Source: Eledone cirrhosa (lineage: Eukaryota). Taken from it: a DNA stretch of 64,000 nucleotides. The position numbers and the translations under genes were made by a program. Positions 5,701 to 55,710 of this stretch are shown here, one piece after another. The stretch covers positions 157,914,001 to 157,978,000 of the forward strand of contig OZ024743.1 of the NCBI GenBank assembly GCA_964016885.1, in the 5' to 3' direction. The notes beneath the pieces were generated by a model, which saw nothing but the letters and a program-made list of their open reading frames with translations, ran no database searches and was not told where the DNA came from. Within the stretch, counting starts at the first letter, position 1; every line of letters starts with the position of its first letter.

Positions 5701-7357
5701 AACTGGCAGCAGAAAGGGAGAATTCGCAACTCTGTGAGCCGAGGAGCGGGGACAAGGATCCGAAAAGGGGGACAACTTAAATAATTTCAGGCCCATAACT
5801 CTGCTCAACGCAGAGTTCAAGATTTTGGCTAAGGTGCTAGCCAAGAAGTTGGCGCTTGTGGTATGTGGTCTGGTGGGAGAGGCGCAGAAATGCACCATTC
5901 CGGACAGATTCATCTACGACAACCTCCACTTCATGTGTTACATCGTGGAGGGTAGCTAGGGCACGCGAGGGGCCTTGATCAATTTAGATCTGTCGAAAGC
6001 TTTCAATAGGGTCGACCATCGTTATCTGGCGGCGGTCAACATCATGCGCTTGGTCCGCCAAGGATAGCCCCTCTCGTGTCTGTTGTACGTATTGAGTCTC
6101 GAGCAATTACTGCACAAACTGGAGACGTTGAGGGGTGTCCCGCGCGACTGGGATATGGGAGAACCGTGTCTGCATATATCGACGACGTCACCGTAGTGGT
6201 GCCGAGCACCAAACACATTGAGGTGATCTACACTACTCTAAAAGAATACGAGGCGGTGATAGGAGCAATGATTAACCAGGAAAAGTTGGTGGGCCTGCTG
6301 CTCGGCACCTGTAGTGTAAGGTCCATGCCGTCCAACAGCATTGTCGGGCGCTGAACGGAATGACCAGTTAAATTGCTAGGGGTCTGGCCCCTCTGCTGTC
6401 AACACCCGCTAAATGGAGGGCTGGGCATGCCATGGCTGATTATGCGCAGACATGCATGCAGGCTACGACATCTACACCTCTTTCTCGACGGTGAACTGTG
6501 GTCGCCGTTTGCTAGACGCGTTTTCCCCAGCTCGTCTCTCCTTGATGGACCTGCACTCTTGGATCAGGCGAAGACTGAGAGGAAGCGCTTGGAGACTGGA
6601 ATGTCTTCAGGCGCTCACAGCCCTCAACCAATCGTAGGATGCGATCGGTGGAAACTCTACCTTGGCGTTCTATAGAGGGTTAGTGCAAAGCGTGACGACG
6701 TCCTTGGAGAGACTCTAGGCCTCGACGAAAATCAACTAGCCAATCTCTTCAGTAGAACTTTTCGGGCCGGGGGAAGTTGTCCCTGGGCAGTGCTACTTTG
6801 AGATAAAAGTTTGAGATAAACTTTACAGGCATGGAAGTGCCGTCAACCGGGCCTGTCCATGATGCGCGTCGGACGACGATACCTTCCTGCATGCTCTCGT
6901 CCAGTGTCCGAGCATCGCTGACTTGTGAGTTTATCTTGAACATCCACTGTCGCGTGTAGGATGGATCCGGCTATCAGCTGAGTCAATCATGAAGATTTGC
7001 CCACCGCCCTCCTCTAACCAGTGGAGTGGTGCATGCAGTTTTTATCTGACTGGTGGCCATGGTAAAAGAGGTCGTATGGTGGTTGTGCTTGCTCAAGCGG
7101 TCAGCGGGACCATAGCTTTTTTGTGGGTTTTCTCCACGAGTGACCCTCGGAAGTCCCCCCCCCCCCTCCCCATTGGGGAATTTTTCCTTATTTCATTTTT
7201 TATTTTGTTACATCCTTTCTTTTAGTTTTATATACATATATTTTTGTTTTTGTTTTTTTACACGCAGAAATGCCCATTTGTACCGTCCTGTACTGTCCTG
7301 TGCAGTCCTTTAATGTTATACTTTATGTCAACCCTTGTGGTTAATAAAGAAAGCATT
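2790..7357 (+). mobile_element. Tx1/L1-type LINE, near full length but heavily degenerate
   Basis: ORF1 remnants (Asn-rich tract, VEGRRPRCHW..KTHLKAFC knuckle) align to 38851-40951. ORF2 remnants carry APE and RT motifs (FRPITLLN, AYIDDV). The 3' end is CCCTTGTGGTTAATAAAGAAAGCATT. Confidence 0.85.
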
Positions 7358-17098: not shown

Positions 17099-18969
17099 CA
17101 TCATCATCCCTATCATCAGCTTCATTATCGTCCATATAATCGTCATCATTATCATCATCTTAAGTATCATCATGATCATCTTCATCAGTATCACCATTTT
17201 CAAATCCGTGATCTTCAATAAAAGCAGCTACAAGAAGTGATATAGCCGAAATCAATAAAGCCAAAGCAATGACAACCGCTGACGAATGCTTCACTGACCA
17301 TCAACTTATCGTATCACATCTATATTATGAGATTCAGACGTAAACCAAGAAGTCATAAAGAAAACAACAATAATAGCAGCAGCACTTACCCAGCTTGACC
17401 TTGACCCTATTTCCAGTATTTCAACGGAAAAGTGAATCCTTTATTCCTTTCCTCAACTCGCACACTTAGGAGATATAAGTAAACATATCCACATACACAA
17501 ATATAATTACATCAATCATACACACACTCTCTCTCTCGCGCACACACACATACATACACACACATACACACATACACACACACACACGCACACTCGCAAG
17601 CACAATACGCACACAATTACACGTTAACGCAAATATAGGAATAATATTGGTGTGCATGCGTGCGCCTGGTCGAATCCTTGTCTTCGTTGATTCTATCTAC
17701 AGGAAAATCAGCTTTTGAATGTAGGGTGTTCTATTTGATATAGAATTTATCTGACACCATGTGGCCTATGTACTGATTATTCAAATGTGATGACGTCATT
17801 GGATTACGTGACGGTATGATTGCTAAAACGAGCTCATTCGATGACATAACTGTTAACCAATCACCACACTATATCGTAGAGTACAAAACTACCTGATTAA
17901 TGTTGTTTTCAACACCTCATTGGCTAGTTTTCGATCAGTCACAGACTATAGGAATTTTTGGTGTCACATTTAAGAAATTAATGTGTTGTAGATTTTACAT
18001 AATAATAAATAAGATGCTATATATATATATATTTCTTTTTATTTACACAGCACGTGGTTTGAAAGCACATTTAACAAAATTACAAAAACTCAGTACATCA
18101 AGTTTACATCTTAATTTATGATAAACATCTAATGGTGTTGTTTATAAAATGTTGTTATGAAAATGTTTAAGCATAGTTTTTATTAAAGTAGATTATTGGC
18201 GAAGAGTAATACCACATGTTTCATGTAATTTTAAAATGTGTGTGATAAAAACAAGGAAATAACGAATAGTAAAAAAGAGAAGTGGGTCCGAATGAATACT
18301 CAGTAGCCTCTGACAACTGGCGGATTTACTGACGGTACTATCGAGATAGTTGGGTATTAGCGGTTTGGGATAAGCTCTACAACGATAAAAGTGATATTAG
18401 TTGCACCTGTCTGAGATTCTTGGGACCATTCTCCCCGAATACGTTCATTGTCCGAAATTGTTAACCGGTGACGCTATGTTAAACGGCTATTACTATATGT
18501 AAGACGTCCCCTCAATAAATCACAATACCACCATTTTTATACAAGCAGCGTCAGACAGTATCCTCTCACTAGTGGACAAAAGAGGTTATATGTTTGAAGT
18601 GCTTAAAAGGACTGAGAACAGGACTCTATCTCTCTATCCAAGCTATCATTAACTTTCCCAGGTTCTACTTGTGGCAGAGTTTGAGAGAAGATATTAAGGT
18701 TCTATTGCCAATCAAATTCGAGAGAAGATGGTTCAAGAAATAAAATTGGTATGTATAAAATAGGCAGTCATAAGATTTTGCTTGAGAGTTGTATTAGAGA
18801 GAGGGCAACTGTGTGAAACACAAGGTTATTGTCGGAATTTGTGGCTGCTCTGATTTCCACTAGGCGGTGATTCACACCCTTTTTTGAACGACTTTTCTGT
18901 TATTTACAGCTATGATTTGTTTAAGACTTTATGTTACATTAGGTTTTCAAATCCCTCTTTATTATTATG

Positions 18970-19175
18970 TAGATTGGCAGTATCAGTAGAGGGTCGGACG
19001 CCATGCTTTGCAGCAGAGAGTTACGGCACTTTACGGTTTGACTTCAAATCTTGCTGAGGTTAACTTTGCTTTTCATCCTTACGGGGTCGATAAAATAAAG
19101 TACCAGTCATGCACTGGGGTCGATTTAATCGACTGTTCCCTCCCCCGATAGTGCTGAGAAATCATTATTATTATT
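18970..19175 (+). mobile_element. SINE family A, long variant with an extra GGGGTCGATTTAATCGACT...CCC segment
   Basis: Same head and core as the family but a different 3' third; its ATT tail abuts an R4 tail. Confidence 0.85.
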
Positions 19176-19799
19176 GTTCTTTGAGTCTCAGTCATTGATG
19201 TTATTTAACTGGAAAGTTTGTTGAAATGAATACCAAGCCGCTACCTGCAGCCTCAAATATTCAGGACGTATCGGAGGGTTCTTGCTGTTCCCAGCAAGCA
19301 TGCCTTTTGAACTGTTCCCAAAAAGCGGGGCTGGACTAATCTTCTTTAACCATCCTTGGAAACTCTTTGAGATAGTACCTAGTGCGCCTATGACAATCAG
19401 GACGACCTTGATTTCATGGCAGTCCCAAATCCTTTTTACCTCCCACTTTAAACCCTGGTATCGGTTAATTTTCTCCCTCTCCTTTTCTTGCACTCTCGTG
19501 TCAAATGGGCAGGCTACATCTACAATCAAGCACCATCTTCTTTCCTTGTCCAAAACCACCAGGTCAGGCCTATTGTGTTCTAATTTCTTGTCCGTCTGTA
19601 TCCTAAAATCTCATTTGCACCTTCACCTGATTGTTTTCTATAACGGACTCTGGCTTATGCTCATACCACTTCTCAGAATGTGGTAAATTGTTTACTTTGC
19701 ATAGATCCCAGTGGATCACCCTCCCTATCACATCATGTCTCCAGCCTTTATAGTGGGTCTGGGCTAGGTGTTTACACTTGGATACAATGTGAGCCACAG

Positions 19800-19840
<41 letters not shown>

Positions 19841-20075
19841 CAGATCCTACACAGTGAGCTAGCCTCCTCCTTATCAATATGGTGTTTCACCCACTTCGTT
19901 CTGAGGGCTTGCTCTTGCGCAGCCATTAGCATTCCTTCTGTAGCTTTTTTAAGGACTCCTCTTTTTAACCAGTTACATGTCTGTGGATCTCTAAATTCCG
20001 TTTTCTTAAAGAAGGTACTATGAAGGGATTTTTCATGAAGGTTGCTCTTCCTTCTTGGACATCCCCTGGGCTATT
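19176..20075 (-). mobile_element. R4/Dong LINE 3' fragment (same family as the 42-52 kb copies)
   Basis: Motifs AAQEQAL, CRICG..ETVAHIVSKC, RHD and IVDVACPFD..KI.RY. A (GA)n expansion sits inside the knuckle (19800-19837). Confidence 0.9.
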
Positions 20076-20079
20076 GTCT

Positions 20080-34090: not shown

Positions 34091-34486
34091 TAGATAGATA
34101 GATATAACCATGTGTGCTAAATGCAAATATATATATATATATATACATACATATAGTTATATTGTGTTCGTTCAGCATGACCAGTTTCCCGCCTTATGAG
34201 AAACGACTGGTAGTTACTTGGATGCGAAGATTATGTATATGATTGAGAAAGCTAAGAACAATCTGTGATAAGTGCTAGCGAGATTAGGTAACGATGTGAA
34301 AGAATGAAGTGGAGAAAAATAGAGAATGAGAGAGAATGGCGTGGAAATGACAGGAAAAAACAGGTGGAGGGGAAAGAAAAAAAAATGATGGAAGAGGACT
34401 TGTGGGTCGGTACGAGAAATAATATTGTTCGTAGAATAATAGTGGGTGGAAATAACAACAACAATAATAATAATAATAATAATAAT

Positions 34487-34563
34487 TGTTTCTACTTTAG
34501 GCACAAGGCCAGCAATAACCCAGTGCATTACTGGTACTTTATTTTATTGACCCCGTAAGGATG
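34487..34563 (-). mobile_element. SINE family A, 3' part
   Basis: Reverse-complement match, embedded in (AAT)n. Confidence 0.85.
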
Positions 34564-34599
34564 TCGGGGTCGATATAATAATAATAATAATAATAATAA

Positions 34600-35123
34600 T
34601 GTGCAAAGTAAACAATTTACCACATTCTGAGAAATGGTATGAGCATAAGCCAGAGTCCGTGATAGAAAACGATCAGGTGAAGGTGCTGTGGGATTTTAGG
34701 ATACAGACGGACAAGAAACTGGAACACAATAGACCTGACCTGGTGGTTCTGGACAAAGAAAAAAGAGCGTGTCTGATTGTGGATGTGGCCTGCCCGTTCG
34801 ACACGAGAGTGCAAGAGGAGGAGAGGGAGAAAATTAACCGATACCAGGACTTAAAGTGGGAGGTAAAAAGGATTTGGAAATGCCATGAAGTCAAAGTGAT
34901 CCCGATTGTCATAGGCGCACTGGGGACTATCTCCAAAAGTTTCCAGGGATGGTTAAAGAAAATCGGCCCCTTCACGCTTTTTGGGACGCTTCAAAAGGCA
35001 TGCTTGCTGGGAACAGCAAGAACCCTCCGATACGTCCTGAATATCTGAGGCTGCAGGTAGTGGCTTGATATTCATTCCAACGGACTTTCCAGTTAACTAA
35101 CATCAATGACTGAGATTCAAGGA

Positions 35124-35125
<2 letters not shown>
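34600..35125 (+). mobile_element. R4/Dong LINE 3' fragment (RLE domain + 3' UTR) with (AAT)n on both sides
   Basis: ORF 34599-35048 reads WDFRIQTD..RPDLV..IVDVACP..KI.RY.DL and is near-identical to the end of 42467-45058. Confidence 0.92.
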
Positions 35126-35160
<35 letters not shown>

Positions 35161-35407
35161 TTTCTTTATTAACCACAAGGGTTTACATAAAGTAGACATT
35201 AAGGACAGTACAGGACAATACAGGACGATACAAATGGGCATTTCTGCGTGTAAAAACTAAAACAGAGGATGTAACAAAAAATAACAATGAAAAATTCCCC
35301 AATAGGGGGGAGACTTCGGAGGGACATTTGTGGAGAAAGCCCAGTAAAAGGCCACAGTGACCCTGACCACCAAGGCAAGTGCCCTCTCCCAGTTTTCCAC
35401 CTTTAAT

Positions 35408-38400
35408 TTACAGATATATACTCAGAGTAGGCCCATTCACTCGGGCCATTCTTGCTTCTCTCACCCATCTTTCAACAAAATGCTGGGAAGAGAGCACTTC
35501 CCTCTCTACTCTGATTTTCCTTTTCAAATGAAATTTGAAAAAGTCAATCAGAGCATCACCGAAGAGGTAAATGCTCGTCTTCAGCCCTTTCAAACGTGTC
35601 CACCATACTATCTCTTTCGCCATGGCCACCAGACAGATAAAAACTGCCTGCCCTTCCCGGCTAAAGGAGGAGGGCGGGGCAATCCTCACGATGGACTCGG
35701 ATGATAGCCGGATCCGTCCTATACGCGACAGCAGGTGTTCGACATAAACCCACAAGTCAGCAATGCTCGGACACTGGACGAGTGCGTGCAGGACGGTTTC
35801 GTCGCCCTGCTCGCATCTCGGACATGCCCAGCTGACGGCACCTCCATGCCTGTAGAGTTTATCCCGAACTGGCAAAGCTGCTCGGTAGCACTGCCAGGCC
35901 AGAGATTTCTGGAAGTTGTCCATAGGCCCTGGCCCGAAAGTTCTTCCGAAGAGATTGGCTAGTTGATTTTCGTCGACGCCTAGAGTTTCCCCAAGTACGT
36001 CGTCGCTCTTCCCCTCCACTAATCCTCTATAGAACGCCGAGGTGGAGTTTCCACCGATCACATTGCCCGATTGGTCGAGGGCTGTGAGCCCCTGAAGATA
36101 TTCCAGTCTCCAGGCGCTCGCTCTCGGTCTTCGCTTGACCCAGGACTGCAGCTCCGTCAAGGAAACGAGCTGGGGAAATACGTGTCTAGCAAACGGCGAC
36201 CACACCTGATCACCTTCGAGGAAGAGGTGGAGATGTCGTAGCCTGAGCGCGTGCCTGCGCATCATCAGCCACGGCATGCCCAGCTGTATTGACAACAGAT
36301 GGACCGCCTGACCATCGGAGCGCGTCCCTTCCACAAAAAGCGAAAGAGCAAACGCTCCAGCGCAGTCAGGCGAGGCTTAGGACAAGGTACGACGGTCAGG
36401 CGGTAGCAGATGACAGACGCGATGTACGCGTTAGCCACCTCCGCTCGACCTTTCAGGGATAGCTTCCTCTCCGCCCATTTCTGGGTTAGAGAAGCCACCC
36501 TGCTCGTCACCTCGTCCCAGTTTCTGTCCGTCTGGAGGTCCGGACTGAACCAGACCCCTAGCAATTTAACCGGTCCGTCCGTCCAGCGTCCGACGACGCT
36601 GTTGGACGGCATGGACCTGCCTCTCCAGGTGCCGAGCTGCAGGCCCACTGACTTTTCCTGGTTGATCATTGCTCCTGTCATCGCTTCGTATTCTCTTAGT
36701 GTAGTGCCGATCGCCTCGATGTGTTTGGCGTTCGACACCACTACGGTGACATCGTCCGCATATGCTGACACGGATTATCCGCATCCTAGTTCGCGCGGGA
36801 CGCCCCTCAACGTCTCCAGTTTGTGCAGTAATGGCTCGAGAGTCAATACGTACAAGAGGGACGAGAGGGGACATCCTTGGCGGACCGAGCGCATGATGTT
36901 GAACGGTTCCGACAGGTGACCGTTCACTCTCACCACAGAGCAGATGTCGCTGTGCATGGCAGCGATCCAGCCTCTGAAGACGGGCCCAAAGCCAGCCGCC
37001 CTCAGGACTGCCGCTAGGTAACGATGGTCTAGCCTATCGAAAGCTTTCGACTGATCTAAATTGATCAAGGACCCACCCGTGCCAGGTTCCCTAGCTACCC
37101 TCTCTACGATGTATCGCATGAGGTGGAGGTTGTCGTGGATGGATCTGTTGGGAATGGCGCATGTCTGCGCCTCTCCCACCAGACCACCAACGACAAGCGC
37201 CAACCTCTTTGCTAGTACCTTGGCCAAAATCTTGAACTCTGTGTTTAGCAGAGTTATGGGTCGGAAATTATCTATGTTATCCCCCTTGTTCGGATCCTTT
37301 CTCAGCAGCGCCACCGCTCCTCGGCTCACAGAACTGGGAATTCTCCCGTTCTGTTGCCAGTTGCAGTAGACGTCCGCCAAGAGGCCTCCGAACAAGTCTG
37401 GCATCTGTACGTAAAGTTCATAGGGCAGACCATCCAAACCAGGCTATTTACCCCTTGTGCAGCCAGTCATTGCCTCCCTTACTTCAGCGGCTGTTATCGG
37501 CTTTTCGCAACACTTCGCCTCAGTGGCCGAGAGCCGCGGCAGTCCGTCGAGGTAGACACTAAAGTCCATCCCTCGAGCCGGCCCACCGCTGCCTCCGAAC
37601 AGCTGAGCGAAGTGTCGCTGAAAAGCTTCACACATTTGCCCGGGATCGAGTAGCATGCGCCCGTCGTGGTCCACCAAAGGCCGGATCGTGGCTTTGTTGC
37701 CACGACGCGCCTCCGCCACTCGGGCCCATTGAACGGCTTTCGTCCCCTCGTGTCTGAGAGCACGCACCCTTGCTCTGACAACGCAGCCTTCGTGCTTTGC
37801 ATTGAAGAATTGGTCAAGGGCCAATTTCGCCGCAAGCACGTCGGTCGCAATGCCTTTGCTAAGCGCCTCGTCTAATTTTCTAACTAGTTCTCCCTCTGCT
37901 CTATTTTTCTCTATTGCTAAAGCCTTACTAAACCTAATCGATTCTATTCTAATCGCTCTTTTCAGAGCAAACCACCACTTGTTGTTGACGATGGCCCCCG
38001 TCAACGCCCGCTTAACTAGTTCGCTAATCCGGTCTCTGTAGGCCTTGCGCGCTGGTAAGGACGCGTTTAGCTTCCAGTAGCCGGGTCCTCGTCTATGAAG
38101 CCTATCTAAGTCAAGCACACAGATCACGAATTTGTAGTCCGTGTAGCTGACTACCTTGAATTGTGGACAGCCTATGCTAGACCTATCTATTTCCCTACAA
38201 AATACTCTATCTAGATATGATCTGGATGACCCTATGCGATTTATCCAAGTCCACATTGGCACATTCGGGAAATCCAATCGGTACCTGTCAGACAGTTCAA
38301 AACGCCTGAGCAGGTTGGTGAGGCTCTTGCACCCTCCACCCCTATCCGCTAATCCCACACAGTCCCAGCGTGCATCTAAGATCCCGTTCCAGTCGCCCAC

Positions 38401-38815
38401 TAACACTAAAGAGCGGGACATTCCAAGAAAGGTCTCCAGACGCCGGAAGAAATCAGGCCGCCCTGCTCCTGTCGGGGCATAGACGGCCACTAGCCTGAAA
38501 GCTTGCCCGTCTCCGCTGGTCACGTCCAGCACCACCAACTTACCCTCTGGGTCCAGGAAGATGGCCCGTATGGCGAGATCCAAACCTCTCCGAAAAAGCA
38601 CAGCAACTCCTCACCCCGATCCAGGACGGCTGGGAGATGCGTACACATCGTAGCCGCCGAAGATCGGTGCGAAGGCTCGTGCTTCGGAGATTCTGATCTC
38701 GCTGATGGCCACTACATCTATGTTTAGTGACCTGAGGTCGTTGAGCAGGTGACCCTGCTTCCATATACGACCCCAAGCCACGCGCATTTATGCTGCCTAT
38801 TCTGAGTGAGGTCAT
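35408..38815 (-). pseudogene. Tx1 ORF2 (APE endonuclease + RT + C-terminal zinc knuckle), disrupted
   Basis: Motifs SINARGL, VYAP, GDWN, YLDRVF; NFRPITLLN, LDQSKAFDR, RQGCPLS, AYADDV; CPRC...ETVLHALVQC. Frameshift near 38765, stops at 37444 and 36775, and a deletion near 36290. Confidence 0.9.
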
Positions 38816-38850
38816 GTTTAAAATAGAGTGGAAAAGATGGGAAAGACCAC

Positions 38851-40951
38851 TTACCGTACTTTTCGTAGAGGAGGGATGGTTTTTCCATCCCTTTTCCCTT
38901 GATTGTCTGGTGAAGGGACCGTTGAATCGTCCCTTCGGCTGGTCGTCGGCTCTTCTATGAGTATGTACGAATATACTCTTCGGTTGATAGTTCCTCCTAG
39001 GTCTCTGAAATCACCAACTGCGTTGGGGAATTCCGTTTTAATGTTTGTGTATTGTTTCTGTGCTATTTTTAGTAGTCTTATGTTAGTTGGCGTTTTGATT
39101 GGTGCTGGTATTATGTAGTCGTGTTGTGAAATGTCTGTGTGTTCAATTATGTAAGTCATTAGTTTCTTGTTGTGTGTATTTATTGCCGTGCATTTGTTTT
39201 TCTGGGTGTGGGGTGTGGTTCTGCTATTTTCTTGTCGTTGTTGCTGGGTGTGTGTGTTTTGTTGTTGTGTTTGCGATGTTGGTGCTTGTGGTGGTGGTGT
39301 TGAAGGTGTTGTTGGCGGTGGGGTTGTCGCCGGTGGTGATGGTGGTGCTAGTGTAGGTGGTGATGGTGTTAGTGGTGTTGTTGCTGTGAGCCTCTTTGCA
39401 GTAGACTTTACCCTTTTTTCATTTCTTTCCTCTTTTTTCAAAGGCGATGATGCGCTGCTTCTGCGTTTGTGCCTTCTTACGACCTTTTGCCATCCCTCTC
39501 CCACCTCACACTCCATGTCTGATTCTGTGAGGTCGGGGTGGGGTATCAGCTCCACTCTTTCACTTGTTGTTGGTGGTGATGTTTGCACTGGAGTCTCTGT
39601 TGCAGCTGCATTTGGTATTGCTGTTGTTGTTAAGACTTCCACTGTTGCTGCTGTTTTTGATTTCCATGGCGTGGGTATGGGTGCCACGGACCTATCGTTC
39701 CTGGTTGCCGCTTGTCCTGTTGCTGGTAGCCGTGGAGCCGGTTTCGGAAGGAGGGGGGTTTTCTCCTTTCTCTGGGTCTTCTCGTTGCAGAAGGCCCTGA
39801 GGTGAGTCTTCGATCCACAGCGAAAGCATTTCGGGCGTTTGCCCTCAACACTTCTGGGCAGTTGAGTGCCGTTATCGAAGTCTATCACATCCGGGATAGC
39901 TTCGATGCACTCCTGGTTGGTTTGGATTAACATCTCAATGGAGGTGCCGACCCAATCTTCTCTTACGTTTTTCTGTACTTGCAGTACAGTTGTTTTGTCC
40001 TCGATTCCGACGAGGACAGACGCGGCCAGCCAAGAAGGGGCCATCCCGGGGGGGGGGGACGTGGGTCAGTTTGACCCTCACAATTTTTTGCCCGCAGTAG
40101 GAGGGCACCAACACCATTTCCTCGCTCCTTAGGGTCACTACGGATTGAGCCTTTGTTTCCTGGGGTGTGGCAAAAAGCACGTCTACGGTGGCATATTTCT
40201 TGCCTCAGGTGATGTGCGTTTTCCGCTGCCACACAGACCACAAGGCTTTTTGTATTTGAGCCTCTGTGGCTCTTTCAACCCTACGGGATTTTGTACTTAC
40301 TGTACGGTACGTGACCGTACAGTGCTGTTGGGTTTCGAAACATTTTTCGGCTGCCTTGCAGATTGCTCGGTGTCCAGTTTTTGTCACCATCTCCTTCGCT
40401 TCCTCTAATTCCTCATTTGTTATGAGGATTGTTTCCAGGTTCTTCGCGATACCTGCAAACGAGATTGGTTTTTCTTTGCTGCTGTTGTTGTTGTTGTTGT
40501 CGTCAGAGCTGCTGTTACTTTTGTTGTTGCTGCAGGTACTACGACTACTGCCGCCGCCGCTGTTGCTGTGGTTGTTGTTGTTGTTGCTGCTGCTAATGCT
40601 GTTGTTGTTTATGCTACTGCTGATGCTGTTGCGGCTGCTACTGTTGTTTTCATTGTCACTGTTGCTGTTGTTATTACGGCTGCTACTGCTATTATTCCTG
40701 ACGTCAGACGAATGAAATGGGCTTTCGTATTTCCCGCACACCTGTTTCGTCGTTGTCGTCGTGGAGAAATCTTGCACGCTTTGCACGAGACTTTTCTTTT
40801 CTGTCGTCGCTTGCGAAAGAGAAGGGAGGGAGAGAGACACATTTAAAGAGGGGAGGGAGAGAGACAATCTTCTCTCTGCTGTAGTGGCGATTGAGGAAGA
40901 AGTAGACGGAATGAGTGGGAGTGACCTATGAAAATTCTTTTTCGTAGCCAT
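38851..40951 (-). pseudogene. Tx1 ORF1 (gag-like, CCHC knuckle), disrupted
   Basis: CFRCGSKTHLRAFC knuckle, with Asn/Ser and Pro/Thr tracts. Stop at 40205 (CGA in the 3.6-kb copy) and a frameshift in the G-run near 40050. Confidence 0.85.
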
Positions 40952-41186
40952 GTTGTTTTTTGTTGTTTAAAATAAATATTGGGCACAAAACCCCAATAAG
41001 CAGTTATTTAACCCCGAAGGGCCAAATAACGGGCAGAAAGACCCCTCTCACGAGGAGGGTGTTTTTGTCTACAAGTTGGTTAAAGTTTTAAACAATTTAC
41101 GATTGTTATAGCGTTCAAAATTTACAATACCTTACAGAGCCGAGCCTCCGTCAACCATAGCATTCAATAATAATAATAATAATAAT

Positions 41187-42318
41187 GTTTTCTTTATTAA
41201 CCACAAGGGTTTACATAAAGTAGACATTAAGGACAGTACAGGACAATACAGGACGGTACAAATGGGCATTTCTGCGTGTAAAAAAAAACAGAGGATGTAA
41301 TAAAATAACAAAGAAAAATTCCCCAATAGGGGGGAGACTTCCGTGGGACATTTGTGGAGAAAGCCCATTAAAAGACCACAGTGACCCTGACCACCAGGGC
41401 AAGTGCCCTCTCCCAGTTTTCCACCTTTAATTTACAGACATATACTCAGATTAGGCCCATTCACTCGGGCCATACTCGCTTCTCTCACCCATCTTTCAAC
41501 AAAATGCTGGGAAGAGAGCACTTCCCTCTCTACCCTGATTTTCCTTTTCAAATGAAATTTGAAAAAGTTAATCAGGGCTTCACCGAAGAGGTAAATGCTC
41601 GTCTTCAGCCCTTTCAAACGCGTCCACCATACTATCTCTTTCGCCATGGCCACCAGACAGATAAAAACTGCCTGCCCTTCCCGGCTAAAGGAAGAGGGCG
41701 AGGCAGTCCTCACGATGGACTCAGCTGATAGCTGGATCCGTCCTACACGTGACAGCAGGTGTTCGACATAAACCCACAAGTCAGCAATGCTCGGACACTG
41801 GACGAGTGCGTGCAGGACGGTTTCGTCGCCCTGCGCGCATCTCGGACATGCCCGGCTGACGGCACCTCCATGCCTGTAGAGTTTATCCCGAACTGGCAAA
41901 GCTCCCCGGTAGCACTGCCAGGCCAGGGATTTCTGGAAGTTGTCCATAGGCCCTGGCCCGAAAGTCCTTCCGAAGAGATTGGCTAGTTGATTTTCGTCGA
42001 CGCCTAGAGTTTCCCCAAGTACGTCGTCGCTCTTCCCCTCCTCTAATCCTCTATAGAACGCCAAGGTGGAGTTTCCACCGATCACATTGCCCGATTGGTC
42101 GAGCGCCTGAAGACATTCCAGTCTCCAAGCGCTCCCTCTCGGTCTTCGCTTGACCCAAGACTGCAGCTCCGTTAAGGAGACGAGCTGGGAAAAGACGTGT
42201 CTAGCAAACGGCGACCACACCTGATCACCGTCGAGGAAGAGGTGGAGATGTCGTAGCCTGAGCGCGTGTCTGTGCATCATCAGCCAAGGCATGCCCAGCC
42301 CATCGGAGCGCGTCTCTT
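41187..42318 (-). mobile_element. Tx1 LINE, 5'-truncated copy
   Basis: Near-identical to 35159-36330; ORF 41432-42318 is the ORF2 C-terminus. Confidence 0.92.
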
Positions 42319-42341
42319 CAACAACAATAATAATAATAATA

Positions 42342-42343
<2 letters not shown>

Positions 42344-42383
<40 letters not shown>

Positions 42384-45300
42384 GTTGTTATTCCTTGAAT
42401 CTCAGTCATTGATGTTGGTTAACTGGAAAGTCCGTTGGATTGAATATCAAGCCACTACCTGCAGCCTCAGATATTCAGGACGTATCGGAGGGTTCTTGCT
42501 GTTCCAAGCAAGCATGCCTTTTGAAGCGTTCCAAAAAGCGTGAAGGGGCCGATTTTCTTTAACCATCCCTGGAAACCTTTGGAGATAGTCCCCAGTGCGC
42601 CTATGACAATCGGGATCACTTTGACTTCATGGCAGTTCCAGATCCTTTTCACCTCCCACTTTAGGTCCTGGTATCGGTTAATTTTCTCCCTCTCCTTCTC
42701 TTGCACTCTCGTGTCGAACGGGCAGGCCACATCCACAATCAGACACGATCTTTTTTCTTTGTCCACAACCACCAGGTCAGGTCTATTGTGTTCCAGTTTT
42801 TTGTCCGTCTGTATCCTAAAATCCCACAGCAGCTTCACCTGATTGTCCTCCATCACCGCCTCTGGCCTATGCTCATACCATTTCTCAGAATGTGGTAAAT
42901 TGTTTACTTTGCACAGGTGCCAGTGGATCACCCTGCCCATCACATCGTGTCTCCAGCCCTTATAGTGGGTCTGGGCTAGGTGTTTACACTCGGACACAAT
43001 GTGAGCCACAGTCTCCTCTCTCTCTCCACAGATCCTGCACAGTGGGCTAGCCTCCTCCTTGTAGATATGGTGCTTCAACCACTTCGTTTTGAGGGCCTGC
43101 TCCTGCGCAGCCATTAGCATTCCTTCTGTAGCCTTTTTGAGGTCTCCTCTTCTCAACCAGTTCCATGTCTGTGGATCTCTAAATTCAGTTTTCTCAAAGA
43201 AGGTACTATGAAGGGATTTTCCCTTAAGGCTGCTCTTCCTCCTTGATGTTATTTCCTCCTTGGACATCCCCTGGCCTACTGTCCCCTCCTTCAGTACAGT
43301 TCTGAGCATTGGCTCCTTACTATAGGTCACGTATTTGTATAGGTTGTTTTTCTCCATCTGAACACAGTCCTCTATGCTGATAAGACCCCTTCCACCCTCA
43401 GATCTCCTTAAGTAGAGTCTATCGACATCACTCCTCTTGTGGAACATGTTGTAGATAGTCAATAGCTTCCTAGTCTTCCTATCCATTTCTTTTTGTTCAG
43501 CAACATTCCATCTCAGAATTCCCGCACTGTACCTAATAATAGACACAGCTCGGGAATTTACTGCGCTTATGGCATTTCTGCTGTTCAGATGTGACTTCAA
43601 TACGCTCCTTACTCTCCGAATGTATTCAGTTCTTAACAATTCCTTCATTTTTTTGTTCTTTATGCCATCAGCCTCCAGAACGCCCAAATACTTGTATCCT
43701 TCCTCAGAGTCAATTTCCTTTATCATCTCACCTGTTGGTATCTGGATCCCGTTACTTCTGCTCAACCTACCCCTCTTCATCACAATGACTCCACATTTAC
43801 CAATACCAAACTGCATACATATATCACTGCTGAAAATACGGACAGTGTCAACAAGCACATCCAACTCCTTCTCACTTTTCCCGAAGAGCTTAAGATCATC
43901 CATGAAGAGGAGGTGATTGATGGTAAGCTCTCCCCTTCCCAACTTGTATCCTGCTCTCACTTTTCGCAGCATAATGGTCAAGGGCATCAGGGCAAGGACA
44001 AACAACAGAGGGGACAGGCTATCTCCCTGGAAGATACCTCTCTTGATCTTCACGCTTCCCAAGGATACTCCAGTTGATGTCAACTCTGTCTCCCAGGACC
44101 CCATACTCCTGCCTAGCAACTGTCTGATGTTATCTGCCACCTTGAAGATCTCCAGGCTTTTGGTGATCCAGGAATGGGGCACCATGTCAAATGCCTTTCT
44201 GTAGTCTATCCATCCCATGGCAAGATCAGTGTGTCTCCTCCTGCAATTCCCCATTACCATCTTATCAATAAGCAACTGGTCCTTTGTACCACGTGACTTC
44301 TTTCGGCATCCTTTCTGTTCGTCCGGTAACAAGTTGTTTGTGTGGAGGTGATGGTAGATTTCCTCAGACACAATGCTCGTCAACAGTTTCCACATTACGG
44401 ACAGACATGTGATAGGTCTATAGTTGGTAACATCATTACCCTTGATTCGGGCTTTCATTATCAGAACTGTGGTACCTTTTGTCAACCACTCTGGCACCTC
44501 ACCCGACACCAAGCAGTCATTGAACATGGCCGTCAGCTTCGGGTGGAGGGATGTTAAATGTTTAATCCAATACCCCTGCACACCATCTGGGCCTGGTGAT
44601 TTCCAGTTGGTTAGTTTTTTGGCCTGCCCCTTAAGAGTTTCAACTGTGATACTCAACTCAGTTTGTTGTTGTGCCTGCTCACCGATCTCCCTCTGTACTG
44701 TCTCAATCCACCCTGCCTGGGCATTGTGTCTAACATCCTGCTCCCATATTCCTCTCCAGAATGTTTTAGTTTGCTCCGCCCCAGGGATCAAGTCGTTGCC
44801 TCTTTCTTTCCCCTCAAGCTGTCCAAACAGCATCTTCTGGTTGTTGTCGAACATGCGGTTCTGTTTATACTGACTGACTCTGTTCTCGTATCGCCTGATT
44901 TTTGCACTCTTTGCTACAATGCGTTGCTTCAGTTCCTCTATGATAATATTTAGCTTTTTACTCCTAGTTTTGTTTTTTATTTCCAGTCTATTTTTAGTGC
45001 CTATGTTTTTTAGTGTCCCATTCAGTAGTGACTCAAGCTTTCCTATGTCATTTCTCATTTCCCCGATTTGCCCACTCAGTCGCTTCTTCCACTACGGCTC
45101 TGCTCTTTCTTGTCTGTTGTTTCCTCTCGCTTTTATACCAAGTAGTTTCCTCACCGTATTTGCTGTTGCTTTGAGGATATTGTTGCACTGGTGAAGGCTC
45201 CTCGCCTCAAGGTATGGGATGACTTTGTTTACCTTAGCTGTTGTTTCTTTTAACTTTTTCCTGTCTACAAATCTTAGGTTCATAGGTCTCCCACTATCAT

Positions 45301-46930
45301 TGTTCAATTCATCTACCACTAAATTTAGGATGTCAACCGAATCTTGTCCTAGCCCGTCAGCATTCATCTCCTCAGTGGCCGTATCTCTGTTCCAGGTATT
45401 ATTTATCTCAGTATTCAGATCATTGTCTGCTTCGGGTGGTTCCTCCGTTCTCAGGACCTCTTCACCTTCATTTCCCACTGGCTCGCTTGTCTGGCATACT
45501 ACACCCGCCATCTCCAAGCCATTCTCTCTGCTCAGTTCCTCCAGTTCCAGCTCGCTTATCCATCCATTAGTTCTTATTACGCGAGCCTGCCCGGCCAATT
45601 TTTGTTCATCTAATTTAAATAACCCAATCTCGTTCCAGATGTTATGCATCCGTCTCCTGTAGCCCCTCTCCTTGGGGTTACTTTTCAGGTAACATTGCAT
45701 AACAGTTCTATTCAATTCTTTCGTCCAGTTGGTTCTGGCCCCTTTCCTTCTTCTCCTTCCTCCAACATCAGCAGTATTTGGTTGACAGTCAGGTTCCTGC
45801 TGCTGAGCCAGGGGGCACCTGTTGGGTGAGAGTCTGTCACATGACGTTCTAGACTCCATTTCACCGTTATTCGAACTGTTTATGTTCGATATTTAAACAC
45901 TCTTATCGAGGATTGGCGAATGTATGGTTACATATCCATCTGTGGATCCGCCATTCCACTTGGCCCTTGTGTGGCATTATCACCACGCTGTATACGAACA
46001 CACATAAACAAACAAACACACGGGCAGAAAGGGCCCCAAAAATGAATAAGCATAAGTTTCATTGTAATGTAGTGTTCGAATGTCTGACTTAGTTTTTGTT
46101 TTTTAAGTTTTAGTTTTTCCCCCCTCTTCTCTGTCCGTCCGCCTGATTCTCTCTTCATTCTTATTTTCTTTACGTTTTTGGGGTTTCTTTTTTTGTTTTT
46201 GTTTTTCTCTGTTTGTTTTTCTCGTTTTTGCTGTTGTTGCTGTGCTGCTTTGGTTTTGTTGTTTGTTTTTTCTTTTTTCTTTTGAGTCTATCTATATATT
46301 TTGATGCCTTCCTCTTATTAATAGTAGGAATTCTATAATGTGGAAGTAGCAGCCAGCAGGGAGAAGTGGGAGACTGGCGGCGGTAGCGATACTGAGACAG
46401 TGGTGGTGGTGATGTCGATACCGAGGCAGTGGTGGCGGTGATGTGACCGTATTACTGTAGTGATGGTGCTGTAGCGGTGGCAGCAGTGAAGGAGTGAAGG
46501 GGTGGTGGCGGCGGTGATGGGATAATGGTGGTAATGATGGCCGTAGTGAGCGGTTGAAAATGCCGTTATCTGGCTGTTGTGTTTAGTGTACACAGATGAT
46601 GGGGTGGGTGGTGTATCTAGTTTCTGGTGTTGGTGAGTTTGGCTGTCCTATATAGTGTAGACAGAGGAGAGGAGGGGGGGGGGTCTTCTTCCATTTATAG
46701 CCATTTTTTTTTTTGGATATACAGTGTACAATACAAAGTTGAATATTTGAATATTTGAGCCTTATAACAATATATTTTGGGTCTGAATTTTTGGGGGGCT
46801 CAAGCCGGGTGCGTTACGTAGCATTTGTACTAAGAGTTGTTATTTCACAAATGATTTAAATATGTTAAAAATTCAAAACTTACGGGAGCGATTTCATGAC
46901 CTCCGTCACCTCGTGCGTCTTCTTCCCTTA
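42344..46930 (-). mobile_element. Full-length R4/Dong LINE between ATT tracts
   Basis: Single long ORF, a short 3' UTR and about 1 kb of 5' region; (ATT)n at 42343-42383 and 46940-46977. Confidence 0.93.
42467..45859 (-). CDS. R4/Dong polyprotein (RT + CCHC + restriction-like endonuclease), 1130 codons with one in-frame TAG at 45092-45094
   Basis: Motifs KSPGPDG, NYRPITCL, WIDYRKAFD, GIFQGDSLSP, LFMDDLK, YKYLG, CRICG..ETVAHIVSEC, RHD, RPDL, DVACP and KI.RY. ORFs 45092-45859 and 42467-45058 are in frame, and the sister copy has TGG at the stop. Confidence 0.92.
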
Positions 46931-46938
46931 TATTTATA

Positions 46939-46977
<39 letters not shown>

Positions 46978-47378
46978 GTTGAGATTGGTTGTGGTGGTGG
47001 TGAAATTGCCGTTATCTGGCTGTTGTGTTTAGTGTACACAGAGGGGTGATGGGGTAGGTGGTGTATCTAGTTTCTGGTGTTGGTGAAATTGCTGTTGTTT
47101 GGCTGTTCTATATAGTGTAGACAGAGGAGGGGGGGTCTTCTTCTTCCATTTATAGCCATTTTCTTTTTTGAATATACAATGTACAATACAAAGTTGAATA
47201 TTTGAGCCTTATAACAATATATTTTGGGTCCGAATTTTTTTCGGGCTCAAGCCGGATGCTTTACGTAACATTTGTACTAAGAATTGTTATTTCACAAATG
47301 ATTTAAATATGTTAAAAAATCAAAATTTACGGAGGCGATTTCTCGACCTTCTACCCACCATGTGTGTCTTCTTCCCCC
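46555..47378 (-). repeat. Direct repeat of a ~375-bp R4 5'-terminal module (46555-46927 and 47001-47377) separated by (ATT)n
   Basis: Both copies run TGCCGTTATCTGGCTGTTGTGTTTAGTGTACACAG...GTCTTCTTCCC. Confidence 0.88.
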
Positions 47379-47411
47379 ATAATAATGATAATAATAATTA
47401 CTATTATTATT

Positions 47412-50400
47412 GTCCCAAGTTTTAACAAAATGTTTAATTCCAACATTAAGGGAATTTATGTCAACACATGTACGGGACTAGCGCCATAGATTCACCGCAC
47501 GGACATCAGTAACGACAACGCCATCACTACAGTCACCGCCGCCGCCGCCCATCCATCATTACTACCACTATCCCATCACCGCCGCCACCACTCCTTCATT
47601 GCTACCACCGCTACCCCACTACCTTCTGTTAACTTACGAAAGGGGAGCATGGCGATATCACTAGACAATATTGATAAACAAGATTAATATTTAATTTTGG
47701 ATCAGGAATGTTGGAGTCGAAAATGGCAAAATGACTAAACGACTACAGATTATTATTTCACCACCAATACTACCACCACTGCCACGATGAAAACTCTGGT
47801 CGAATCGACTCAAACTTATACCCCAACTACAACACCATCACTACAGTAATACGACCACATCACCACCACTACTAAACGACTACAGATTATTATTATTTCA
47901 CCACCAATAACACCACCACTACCACGATGAAAACTCTGGTCAAATCGACTCAAATTTATACCCCAACTACAACACCATCACTACAGTAATACGATCACAT
48001 CACCACCACCACTGCCTCAGTATCGCTACCACCGCTATTCTCTCCCATTACCTCCTGCTGCTAGCACACCAACGCCACCACATTGTAGAATTCCTACTAA
48101 AAAAGAGGAAGGCATCAAAATATATAGATAGACTCAAAAGGAAAAACAAAAATCAAAATCAAAGCAGCACAGCAACAACAACAACAACAACAAAAAAAGC
48201 AGACAAAAAAGCAAAAACAAAAAAACGTAAAGAAAATAAGAATGAAGAGAGAAACAAACGGACGGACAGAGAAGGGAAGGGAAAAACTAAGTCAGACATT
48301 CGAACACTACATTACAATGAAACTTATGCTTATTCATTTTGGGGTTTTTTCTGCCTGTTTGTTTGTTTGTTTATTTGTGTTCGTCTACAGCGTGATAATG
48401 CCACACAAGAGCCACGTGGAGCGACGCAACCACCGGAGACGGTGAATCCACAGGTGGTTATGTAACCATACATTCGCCAATCCTCGATAAGAGTGTTTAA
48501 ATGTCGAACCTAAACAGTTCGAATAACGGTGAAATGGAGACTAGAACGTCATGTGACAGACTCTCACCCAACAGGTGCTCCCTGGCTCAGCAGCAGGGGC
48601 CTGGCTGTCAACCAAATACTGCTGGTGTCGGAGGAAGAAGAAGAAGGAAAGGGACCAGAACCAATTAGACGAAATGATTGAATAGAACTGTTATGCAATG
48701 TTACCTGAAAAGTAACCCCAAGGAGAGGGGCTATAGGAGACGGATGCATAACATCTGGAACGAGATTGGTCTATTTAAATTAGATGAACAAAAATTGGCC
48801 GGGCAGGCTCGGGTAATAAGAACTAATGGGTGGATAAGCGAGCTGGAACTGGAGGAACTGAGCAGAAAGATTAGCTTGGAGATGGAGGGTGGAGAATGCC
48901 AGGCAAACGAGCCAGTGGGAAATGAAGGTGAAGAGGTCGAGAGAACGGAGGAACCACCCGAAGCAGACAATGATCTGAATGCTGAAATAAATAATACCTG
49001 GAACAAAAATACGGCCATTGAGGAGATGAATGCTGACGGGCTAGGACAAGATTTGGTTGATATCCTAAACTTAGTGGTAGATGAAATGAACAATGATAGT
49101 GGGAAACATAATAACCTAAGGTTTGTAGACAGGAAAAAGTTAAAAGAAACAACAGCTAAGGTAAACAAAGTCATCCCATACCTTGAGGCGAGGAGCCTTC
49201 ACCAGTGCAACAATATCCTCAAAGCAACAGCAAATGCGGTGAGGAAATTACTTGGCATAAAAGCGAGAGAAAACAACAAACAAGAAAGATCAGAACCTTG
49301 GTGGAAGAAACGACTGAGTGGGCAAATCAGGGAAATGAGAAATGACATTGGAAAGCTTGTGTCCCTACTGAATGGGACACTAAAAAACATAGACACTAAA
49401 AATAGACTGGAAATAAAGTAAAAAACTAGGAGGAAAAGGCTAAATATTATCATAGAGGAACTAAAGCAACGTATTGTAGCCAAGAGTGCAAAAATTAGGC
49501 GATACGAGAGCAGAATCAGTCAGTATAGACAGAACCGCATGTTTGACAACAACCAGAAGATGTTGTTTGGACAGCTTGAAGGGAAAGAAAGAGGCAACGA
49601 ATTGATCCCTGAGGCGGAACAAACTAAGACATTCTGGAGAGGAATATGGGAGCAGGATGTTAGACACAATGCCCAGGCAGTGTGGATTGAGACAGTACAA
49701 AAGGAGTTTAGTGAACAGGCACACCAACAAACTGATTTGAGTATCACAGTTGAAACTCTTAAGGGGCAGGCCAAAAAACTAACCAACTGGAAATCACCAG
49801 GCCCAGATGGTGTGCAGGGGTATTGGATTAAAAATATAACATCCCTCCACCCGAAACTGACAACCATGTTCAATGACTGCTTGATGTCAGGTGAGGTACC
49901 AGAGTGGTTGACAAAAGGTACCACAGTTCTGATAATGAAAGACCGAATCAAGGGTAATGATGTTACCAACTATAGACCTATCACATGTCTGTATGTAATG
50001 TGGAAACTGTTGACGAGCATTGTGTCTGAGGAAATCTACCATCACCTCCACACAAACAACTTGTTACCGGACGAACAGAAAGGATGCCGAAAGAAGTCAC
50101 GTGGTACAAAGGACCAGTTGCTTATTGATAAGATGGTAATGGGGAATTGCAGGAGGAGACACACTGATCTTGCCATGGGATGGATAGACTACAGAAAGGC
50201 ATTTGACATGGTGCCTCATTCTTGGATCACCAAAAGCCTGGAGATCTTCAAGGTGGCAGATAACATCAGACAGTTGTTGGGCAAAAGTATGAGGTCCTGG
50301 GAAACAGAGCTGACATCAACTGGAGAATCCTTGGGAAGCGTGAAGATCAAGAGAGGTATCTTCCAGGGAGATAGCCTGTCCCCTCTGCTGTTTGTCCTTG

Positions 50401-52022
50401 CCCTGATGCCCCTGACCAGTGTACTGCGAAAAGTGAGAGCAGGATACGGGTTGGGAAAGGGAGGGCTTACCATCAATCACCTCCTCTTCATGGACGATCT
50501 TAAGCTCTTCGGGAAGAGTGAGAAGGAGTTGCATGTGCTTGTTGACACTGTCCGTATTTTCAGCAGTGATATATGTATGCAGTTTGGTATTAGTAAATGT
50601 GGAGTCATTGTGATGAGGAAGGGTAGGTTGAGCAGAAGTAACGGAATCCAGATACCAACAGGTGAGATGATAAAGGAAATTGACTCTGAGGAAGGATACA
50701 AGTATTTGGGCGTTCTGGAGGCTGATGGCATAAAGAACAAAAAAATGAAGGGATTGTTAAGAACTGAATACATTCGGAGAGTAAGGAGCGTATTGAAGTC
50801 ACATCTGAACAGCAGAATGCCATAAGCGCAGTAAATTCCCGAGCTGTGTCTATTATTAGGTACAGTGCGGGAATCCTGAGATGGAATGTTGCTGAACAAA
50901 AAGAAATGGATAGGAAGACTAGGAAGCTATTGACTATCTACAACATGTTCCACAAGAGGAGTGATGTCGATAGACTCTACTTAAGGAGATCTGAGGGTGG
51001 AAGAGGTCTTATCAGCATAGAGGACTGTGTTCAGATGGAGAAAAACAACCTACACAAATACGTTACTGATAGTAAGGAGCCAATGCTCAGAACTGTACTG
51101 AAGGAGGGGACAATAGGCCAGGGGATGTCCAAGGAGGAAATAACAACAAGGAGAAAGAGAAACCTTCATGAAAAATCCCTTCATAGTGCCTTCTTTAAGA
51201 AAACTGAATTTAGAGATTCACAGACATGGAACTGGTTGAAAAGAGGAGACCTTAAAAAGGCTACAGAAGGAATGCTAATGGCTGCGCAAGAGCAGGCCTT
51301 CAAAACGAAGTGGCTGAAACACCATATTTGCAAGGCGGAGGCTAGCCCACTGTATAGGATCTGTGGAGAAAGAGAGGAGACTGTGGCTCACATTGTATCC
51401 GAGTGTAAACACCTAGCCCAGACTCACTATAAGGGCTGGAGACATGATGTGATGGGCAGGGTGATCCACTGGCACCTATGCAAAGTAAACAATTTACCAC
51501 ATTCTGAGAAGTGGTATGAGCATAAGCCAGAGTCCGTGATAGAAAACGATCAGGTGAAGGTGCTATGGGATTTTAAGATACAGACGGACAAGAAACTGGA
51601 ACACAATAGACCTGACCTGGTGGTTTTGGACAATGGAAAAAGATCGTGCCTGATTGTGGATGTAGCCTGCCCATTCGACACGAGAGTGCAAGAGAAGGAG
51701 CGGAAGAAAATTAACCGATACCTGGACTTAAAGTGGGAGGTAAAAAGGATTTGGAACTGCCATGAGGTCAAAGTGGTCCCGGTTGTCATAGGCGCACTAG
51801 GTACTATCTCAAAGAGTTTCCAGTTTAAAGAAAATTGGTCCCGCCCCGCTTTTTGGAACACTTCAAAAGGCATGCTTGCTGGGAACAGCAAGAACCCTCC
51901 GATACGTCCTGAATATCTGAGGCTGCAGGTAGTGGCTTGATATTCATTTCAACAAACTTTCCAGTTAAATAACATCAATGACTGAGACTCAAAGAACAAT
52001 AATAATAATAATAATAATAATA
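47412..52022 (+). mobile_element. Full-length R4/Dong LINE, second copy, several lesions
   Basis: ATG at 48534; stops near 48667, 48675 and 49419; frameshifts near 50818 and 51822. Ends GAGACTCAAAGAAC(AAT)n, then (AGT)n. Confidence 0.92.
47734..48012 (+). repeat. 137-bp tandem duplication in the R4 5' region
   Basis: ACTAAACGACTACAGATTATT... starts at 47734 and again at 47871. Confidence 0.85.
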
Positions 52023-55080: not shown

Positions 55081-55315
55081 TACCTTTTAGGGAAAGTTCA
55101 AAACAAAAAGCAACTAACAAAGGAAAGAACACCTACAATATGAGCTGATCCACTCGCGATATAACGCATGTGAAACCCTTATAAATATATATATATATCA
55201 TCATCATCATCATCATCATCATTATCATCATCGTTTAACGTCCGTGTTCCACGCTTGCATGGGTTTGGACGGGGGTTTTCCCACTTGAGGCAAGAGTGAT
55301 TATCTTGCTCGCATA

Positions 55316-55545
55316 GGACTGTCTGGCGGGTTTTCTACAGCTGGATGCCCTTCCTAACACCAACCACATTTACAGTGTGGGGCTGGGAGGTTTTTACCGT
55401 GTTGCCTACACGGCCACATTACAGTGTGGACTGTCTGGCGTGTTTTCTACAGCTGGATGCCCTTCCTAACACCAACCACATTTACAGTGTGGGGCTGGGA
55501 GGTTTTTACCGTGTTGCCTACACGGCCACATTACAGTGTGGACTG
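55316..55545. repeat. 112-bp tandem duplication in the RTE 3' UTR
   Basis: GGACTGT at 55316, 55428 and 55540; only one unit in the copy at 60.2-60.4 kb. Confidence 0.88.
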
Positions 55546-55710
55546 TGTTTTTTGACGTGACACCTACACGATCTCATTTGTTTCGGCCTGGATGTTGAGG
55601 CACCAACATAACTTTACATTGAAAGGGGCGGTGTGGATGGGGTGGGTTGGTGGGACGGGATTGTATTTTGTTAGAGATGCCTACTGACTGTAGTAGGTTT
55701 TACTTTGTAT

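Follow-up and report, generated by a model that had tools for sequence, protein, structure and literature searches.

Dong/R4 and Tx1-like retroelements occupy the same AAT microsatellites in opposite orientation in the genome of Eledone cirrhosa

Both Dong elements on (TAA)n and microsatellite-specific Tx1 elements are already known among the long interspersed nuclear elements (LINEs). Dong targets (TAA)n in insects, molluscs and cnidarians and carries a Myb-like N-terminus (PMC7998251, in excerpt), and the targets given in the excerpted text of PMC3812793 are (TC)n for Kibi, (TTC)n for Koshi and (TAA)n for Dong. Dong-R4 is abundant and recently active in Octopus (excerpts of PMC13282606 and PMC9115989), and Dong-R4 and L1-Tx1 are abundant in cephalopods, according to excerpts of PMC8967140 and PMC10294476 that do not mention a target. 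We analyzed a window of 64,000 nucleotides from the 3.0-Gb genome of the octopod Eledone cirrhosa (contig OZ024743.1, here C4, positions 157914001-157978000), in which LINEs of two families, here named Dong/R4 (or R4) and Tx1-like, and a short interspersed nuclear element (SINE) lie around AAT microsatellites. The pattern is real and genome-wide, and it is assembled from known kinds of element. We consider it probable that the two LINE families share AAT tracts in opposite orientation, likely by nicking opposite strands, and that the SINE likely borrows the Tx1-like proteins.

The first-pass annotation of this sequence had proposed that a LINE with an apurinic/apyrimidinic endonuclease (APE) and one with a restriction-like endonuclease (RLE) use one repeat with fixed opposite polarity. 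This held in genome-wide counts, in a grid sample and at the 5' junctions of truncated copies. We found 9,671 exact Tx1-like 3' ends in the genome, and (ATT)3 came next in 7,395 of them (76%), against 19 matches at 15 places followed by (AAT)3, a polarity of about 490:1. Tabulated in this way, random orientation is excluded. Among the best 30 matches to each end (the window copy included; 40 of 58-1,816 candidates were scored, and these are near relatives of the queries), the Tx1 5' end had ATT in 30/30 and the 3' end in 27/30 (TTC in 2, none in 1), while R4 had AAT at the 3' end in 30/30 and at the 5' end in 29/30. The grid sample consisted of 99 stretches of 10 kb at fixed spacing (990 kb), in which tracts of at least 5 AAT units were collected. 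A Tx1 or R4 end touched 19 of the 42 AAT tracts, compared with 1 of 112 AAC, AAG, ACT or ATC tracts (Fisher P = 8e-12). The polarity here was 14:1 for R4 and 10:1 for Tx1, both exceptions being one flipped tract that was entered twice.

Since a 3' tail could be encoded by the element itself, the real test of targeting is the 5' junction of truncated copies. Counting distinct break points, and setting aside the rows of a Tx1-like subfamily with another 5' half, ATT was found at 17 of 23 Tx1-like junctions and AAT at 0/23. Truncated Dong/R4 copies had AAT at 47/60 and ATT at 1/60. The background was at least 3 units in 0.26-0.27% of random 30-nt windows. Sequence specificity has been defined as over 20% of flanks of one type (PMC4494074, in excerpt), and the Tx1-like family exceeds this value both at its exact 3' ends and at its truncated 5' junctions. 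Besides, two paralogous empty sites already had a tract. The internal site of an R4 copy, called Y below, has a short imperfect AAT tract in L107, L184, L336 and L347 where the window has another R4, copy X; and a 78-bp repeat unit with (ATT)4, empty at window positions 25649-25825, contains a Tx1 in L316 (by inspection). The junctions of truncated copies and these empty sites exclude that the repeats are element tails only, which would have undermined the proposal.

The array that gave rise to this analysis occupies positions 34451-52021 of the window and consists of six insertions with AAT tracts between them: a truncated SINE (-), a truncated R4 (+), a full and a truncated Tx1-like copy (both -) and two R4 copies. 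None of them is intact, each being broken or truncated. The features are as follows.

34451..34486 (+), left end of the array, (AAC)3(AAT)8 tract
34485..34576 (-), 5'-truncated SINE, last 79 nt to 34563, ATT on the sense strand at both sides
34577..34600 (+), (AAT)8 tract separating the SINE from R4
34601..35128 (+), 5'-truncated Dong/R4 copy, RLE end and 3' untranslated region (UTR), AAT at both sides
35129..35158 (+), (AAT)10 tract, R4/Tx1-like tail-to-tail junction
35159..41165 (-), full-length Tx1-like LINE, 6.0 kb, both open reading frames (ORF1 and ORF2) broken
41166..41186 (+), (AAT)7 tract between two Tx1-like copies arranged head-to-tail
41187..42325 (-), 5'-truncated Tx1-like copy, 94.8% identity to the full copy
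42326..42383 (no strand), (AAT)6 then (ATT)14, a polarity flip, inferred left inversion breakpoint
42384..46939 (-), Dong/R4 copy X, full-length at 4.55 kb, lying within the 5' UTR of copy Y
46940..46975 (-), (AAT)12 on the sense strand of X, the 5' tract of X
46976..47378 (-), first 400 nt of the long-form R4 copy Y, inverted relative to the Y body; colinear in L184, L336 and L347
47379..51997 (+), body of R4 copy Y, beginning at an internal imperfect AAT site (inferred right breakpoint)
51998..52021 (+), right end of the array, (AAT)8, then (TAG)n

At the 5' junction of the truncated SINE there is a 13-nt piece (34564-34576) that partly folds back.

The Dong/R4 family has the layout of its clade, a single ORF with a reverse transcriptase (RT), then a CCHC knuckle and a PD-(D/E)xK restriction-like endonuclease, and no APE. 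The one ORF of copy X is broken by a stop; it matched the Pfam RT (RVT_1) and no APE family. The R4 protein P0001 has a CCHC at 685, RPD at 770 and K-x3-Y at 803, an RPD..D..K RLE motif, and its closest solved structures are R2 proteins. Its N-terminus has no Pfam match and showed, by inspection, a Trp-spaced Myb-like stretch and no zinc finger. The clade trait of (TAA)n at both sides, with AAT on the sense strand, is present as well. None of the 120 listed homologues was a named Dong/R4 reference. Compared with Bombyx Dong, DongAg, DongBg and Darwinula Dong1/2, which share the single ORF, RT, CCHC, RLE and (TAA)n and, as far as inspection shows, the Myb-like N-terminus, nothing essential differs, except that here the target is common to a Tx1-like family, a situation unmentioned for Dong in the excerpts of PMC7998251 and PMC3812793. 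The genome has at least two Dong families and a long 5' UTR form whose internal AAT site is itself hit.

The Tx1-like family has the L1/Tx1 layout, ORF1 plus an ORF2 with N-terminal APE, RT and C-terminal CCHC. In the full-length copy ORF1 lies at about 38851-40966, and the broken ORF2 matched the Pfam families APE (PF03372), RT (PF00078) and zf-RVT (PF13966)/CCHC and, weakly, human L1 ORF2p; the same three families are present in intact homologues, which measure about 1,150 aa. The nearest named relative of the APE-type RT was from Argonauta hians (75% identical), and the family is present in sequencing-run contigs of three other organisms. We use the label Tx1-like because no named Tx1 reference (Tx1L, Keno, Kibi, Koshi) was found among the RT homologues. 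Kibi, Koshi and the crocodilian (TTCC)n/(TTTC)n elements have the same ORF1 and APE-RT-CCHC ORF2, the repeat at both sides and a fixed polarity, and a likeness to Koshi on (TTC)n is seen in the 2 of 30 Tx1-like copies ending in TTC. Unlike these microsatellite-specific Tx1 elements, the family described here targets (ATT)n, has sisters on (ATCT)n and on a satellite, lives in an invertebrate host, shares its 3' hairpin with a SINE and has exchanged 5' halves between subfamilies. ATT is not among the Tx1 targets in the excerpts of PMC3812793 or in the text of PMC4494074, whose figure 3 or supplements may name it. Two Tx1-like subfamilies, L315-L332 and that of the window copy, have a common ORF2 and 3' end and different 5' halves, the switch lying just upstream of ORF2 and ATT standing at the 5' end in both. 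In L045/L315 and L058/L316, Tx1-like copies are preceded by (ATT)10-12 on the 5' side and followed by ATT(CTT)9-22 on the 3' side.

The first-pass annotation had also taken the SINE as a partner specialized on the microsatellite, and this was not borne out. There were 121 3'-intact SINE matches in the grid sample (a few rows enter one copy twice), from which a few hundred thousand copies are expected in the genome. The SINE makes up at least 2.2% of the DNA sampled. At least three ATT units followed in only 13/121 and at least three AAT units in 0/121; 6/121 had at least three ATT units at both sides, the arrangement expected of a microsatellite-specific SINE. Target duplications of at least 8 bp accompanied 49 grid matches, and ATTAT came directly after 67 of 83 SINE ends. 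Among the 30 copies closest to the query there was a 3' tract in 1 and a 5' tract in 0/30, and duplications of 8-20 bp in 23, mostly starting with AGTAT. These closest copies (L061-L090) are 100% identical, and in older copies the duplication starts with ATTAT, so that the site preference seems to have shifted from ATTAT to AGTAT. Thus the SINE matches the Tx1 site in polarity and first letters, without need for a tract, and inserts instead at short ATTAT/AGTAT sites. Many full copies begin with GGG.

The link between the SINE and the Tx1-like family is at the 3' end. The last 25 nt of the SINE match the Tx1-like ends in a stem of 3-4 bp, a CTTGT-type loop and an A-rich spacer followed by the target; in the full-length Tx1-like copy of the window the hairpin is found about 20 nt before the end. 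The stems differ between families and yet stay paired: in an alignment of 12 related rows, preselected for at least 3 pairs in a stem of only 4, 92% of cells were paired and 3 of the 4 pairs had changed on both sides, with 0 of 500 shuffles as high and lower values in slid controls. This common 3' sequence with a compensated stem-loop, within the limits of four pairs and preselected rows, is the trait of stringent SINE/LINE pairs such as plant L1 (monocot 1a) and UnaL2, which have the same short 3' stem, conserved loop and compensatory changes (PMC3747384, in excerpt). Here the loop is different and the partner Tx1-like, while the excerpt names L1-clade pairs in maize/sorghum and Chlamydomonas and none of Tx1. 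The crocodilian Tx1-Mar/SINEU case shows the same common target and orientation of SINE and Tx1, with a weaker preference in some SINE families (excerpt of PMC4494074); there the link consists of the common target and U1/U2 heads, here of the common 3' hairpin and a tRNA-like head (by inspection). This head has A/B-box-like motifs by inspection and gave no ARAGORN or Rfam tRNA match. Judged from these sequences, the SINE is likely mobilised in trans by Tx1-like proteins through the common hairpin. Neither an (ATT)n-specific Tx1 nor a Tx1-SINE tail pair was found in the literature searched, Repbase being outside that search; nor does that literature appear to describe ATT or ATCT as a Tx1 target, two LINE families with opposite polarity on the same repeat, or a hairpin linking the SINE to Tx1.

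The same 3' end is found in Tx1-like families with other targets: (ATCT)n, a satellite and, in an old family, short AT-rich sites. Among the listed matches of the (ATCT)n family (L250-L274, query L186:4700-4915; 1,438 first-look candidates), ATCT stood at the 3' side in 18/25 and AGAT in none, a fixed polarity; at the truncated 5' side ATCT was found in 8/18, with some junctions mis-called and again no AGAT, over a background of 0.5%. The copies of the satellite family (L275-L294, query L238:6088-6300) are 99-100% identical over 213 nt, and by inspection 19/20 lie in the satellite, at one position of its unit of about 60-72 bp; several are near contig ends or on small contigs. A midpoint-rooted tree was built from 20 of the 69 C-terminal pieces, with no more than three for each end motif; in it the families on ATCT and on the satellite group together (100/100) next to the ATT family of the window (95/94). 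An order with ATT before ATCT and satellite is only suggestive.

In target-primed reverse transcription the primer is the strand complementary to the sense flank of the element. With the polarity found here, priming would thus take place on the AAT-reading strand for Tx1-like elements and on the ATT-reading strand for Dong, the former strand being nicked by the Tx1-like APE and the latter by the Dong RLE. Each insertion would leave a tract at both sides through target duplication and slippage, and in this way tracts would multiply and lengthen and arrays would grow. By borrowing Tx1-like proteins through the hairpin the SINE would acquire the same polarity while inserting at its short ATTAT/AGTAT motif. 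The window array would be the product of six such insertions, part of it later inverted between two AAT tracts.

Several observations weigh against this reading. Three perfect ATT units are missing from 24% of the exact Tx1-like ends, and a tract from 6/23 truncated Tx1 and 13/60 truncated R4 junctions, several of which resemble internal deletions or subfamily switches. The evidence for pre-existing tracts comes from paralogous, not orthologous, empty sites, and the ATT at the 5' side with TTC at the 3' side in two Tx1 copies is not explained by simple target duplication. The covariation figures of the hairpin overstate its support, given four pairs and related, preselected rows. As to the current driver of the SINE, its closest copies favour AGTAT and only 31 Tx1 ends are followed by AGTATT; these matches are spread over several families, and a Tx1 family aimed at AGTAT was discarded. 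The clade names Tx1 and Dong/R4 follow from domain layout, not from a tree with named references. Finally, annealing of the RNA end to the target could partly set the polarity.

Taken further, this last point would have both endonucleases loose, or nicking both strands, with orientation set afterwards by pairing of the RNA 3' end (AAU in Dong, AUU in Tx1). The R4 3' ends do look element-encoded, and the stuttering at Tx1 junctions hints at an RNA that ends in AUU units. We nevertheless find this explanation unlikely. Sister Tx1-like families with nearly the same 3' end are found in different repeats (ATT, ATCT, satellite), which favours protein rather than RNA as the strand chooser; Tx1 and SINE ends pass straight into duplicated target sequence, again pointing to the protein; and the endonuclease has been named as the main determinant of target choice (PMC4494074, in excerpt).

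Similarly doubtful is that the SINE was moved by another LINE, of RTE, CR1 or L2 type, and resembles the Tx1-like end by chance. The common motif measures only about 25 nt, the AGTAT preferred by the closest SINE copies is rare after Tx1-like ends, and many LINE clades are active in octopods (PMC13282606, in excerpt). Chance would have to account, though, for the agreement of the two in loop, stem pairing, A-rich spacer, distance from the end and polarity, and the old Tx1-like family inserts at short AT-rich sites like the SINE. The end of one other LINE of the window, a single family, is (GAT)n and does not have the motif.

The growth of the tracts bears on a third explanation, that the elements make them through RNA-encoded tails and stuttering at both junctions, at short AT-rich sites and with no targeting of microsatellites. 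Tracts adjacent to LINEs are longer than free ones (median 9 vs 6 units, P = 0.016), and at the R4 Y site the empty copies show 2-6 imperfect units, compared with 12 and 14 perfect units in the filled one, so that tracts probably become longer by insertion. The imperfect AAC/AGC/AGT units, resembling element sequence, that precede AAT at R4 ends and the stuttered junctions at some Tx1 ends go in the same direction. The 5' and 3' tracts did not differ significantly in length (Tx1 P = 0.21, n = 32; R4 P = 0.065, n = 48). However, copies truncated at many different positions have a tract at the 5' junction, which the 5' end of the RNA cannot have supplied; empty paralogous sites already have a tract; and the SINE, whose end is of the same kind, makes none in most cases. 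We regard this explanation as quite improbable, and the lengthening probably comes on top of targeting and does not take its place.

The self-feeding arrays proposed at first pass stand in a weak sense, that tracts beside insertions are reused and give same-strand chains. The first 100 listed Tx1 ends on C1 had 38 neighbours within 15 kb versus 3.3 expected, 34 of them on the same strand; for distant neighbours the same strand was found in 31/53. In the grid sample 6 tracts had LINEs on both sides, and an urn model that treats all tracts, new or old, as equally good targets gives 3.2-6.6 for the insertion numbers assumed, so that reuse alone suffices. An automated search for empty paralogous flanks at 87 sites found mainly element-to-element junctions, which show reuse and not order. 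That insertions are random and merely survive in microsatellites, or that chains are tandem duplications of one insertion, is highly improbable: a few ends on C1 that recur every 395 bp do resemble local duplication, and the clustering there may be partly regional, yet the polarity of about 490:1, the near absence from four other trinucleotide classes, chain neighbours from different families with different truncation points, the grid sample, the truncated junctions and the genome-wide 3'-end counts all contradict it.

An apparent exception to the polarity is the minus-strand R4 at 42384-46939, whose neighbouring AAT tracts are on the plus strand. Copies X and Y are 91.6% identical over 4.1 kb, and both ends of X have AAT on the sense strand of X. 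In comparison with the colinear long-form copies L184, L336 and L347, the target of X appears to have been an imperfect AAT site within the 5' UTR of Y, and 42344-47378 would have been inverted later, with both breakpoints in AAT tracts. A true exception is rejected, because the later inversion explains the orientation of X. With the inversion read back, AAT is on the sense strand of every R4 of the array and ATT on that of every Tx1-like copy. Sequencing-run contigs at 47379 neither bridged nor contradicted the inversion junction, their loose ends being the normal uninverted Y of other copies, and there may be a mis-assembly at this point. Joint breakage of a tract by both enzymes as a cause of inversions is speculation. 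Flips from AAT to ATT, the signature of such breakage, were in no clear excess (7 rows among 149 tracts, each flip entered on both strands and some internal to R4 Y, vs 4-5 rows of AAT/AAC compounds). A wider scenario is tentative and less likely than not: one octopod Tx1 lineage would have retained the same handle at the 3' end of its RNA through endonuclease switches between (ATT)n, (ATCT)n and the satellite, would drive several hundred thousand SINEs and, with Dong on the same tract, would make complementary nicks leading to double-strand breaks and inversions like that of the window.

These families offer a natural series for target change in an APE, with close relatives in one genome, three repeats and thousands of dated insertions, beside an unrelated RLE enzyme on the complementary strand of one repeat. 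They also provide a candidate driver for an abundant SINE, which bears on the octopod SINE expansion. In practice, the multicopy LINE ends that flank almost half of the longer AAT microsatellites can mislead both marker design and assembly.

Three other loci of the window contain the same families.

654..2560 (no strand), older Tx1-like 3' piece (+, to 1377), (ATT)5 at 1378-1392 and second Dong family (-, from 1393), tail-to-tail
4469..7354 (+), older truncated Tx1-like copy, 80-86% identity, degenerate ATT-like flank
18969..20078 (no strand), SINE variant (+), (ATT)4 at 19164-19175 and truncated R4 (-), tail-to-tail

As claimed at first pass, all five R4-type 3' ends (1392, 19176, 35125, 42390 and 52000) have AAT on the sense strand, the one at 1392 belonging to the second Dong family, whose protein is 40% identical to that of the main family. 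The tail-to-tail geometry is real at about 1385, 19170 and 35140, with the SINE variant as partner of the R4 at 19170. The ATT claimed for Tx1 3' ends was found at 1380, 35159 and 41187; the end at 2780 is that of a SINE and was rejected as Tx1, and the flank at 7355 is degenerate ATT-like. As for the window SINEs, by inspection the one at 34485 alone is in a real ATT tract, and the 1-3 ATT units of the others are the start of the target duplication in ordinary DNA.

The 78-bp tandem repeat with internal (ATT)4-5 extends over 25649-26114; in the window it contains a SINE, in L316 a Tx1-like copy. At about 22488-25600 (-) there is a third RLE-type LINE, degraded, which is 27-38% identical to the main R4 protein and has no AAT tail; a relative is found in L138. 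A 200-N assembly gap at 20723-20922 adjoins a SINE 5' end. Two copies of the LINE ending in (GAT)n, at 55197-58143 and 60159-61739 (-), have an RT followed by a PHD-finger match, and a 112-bp tandem duplication is present in the 3' UTR of this LINE.

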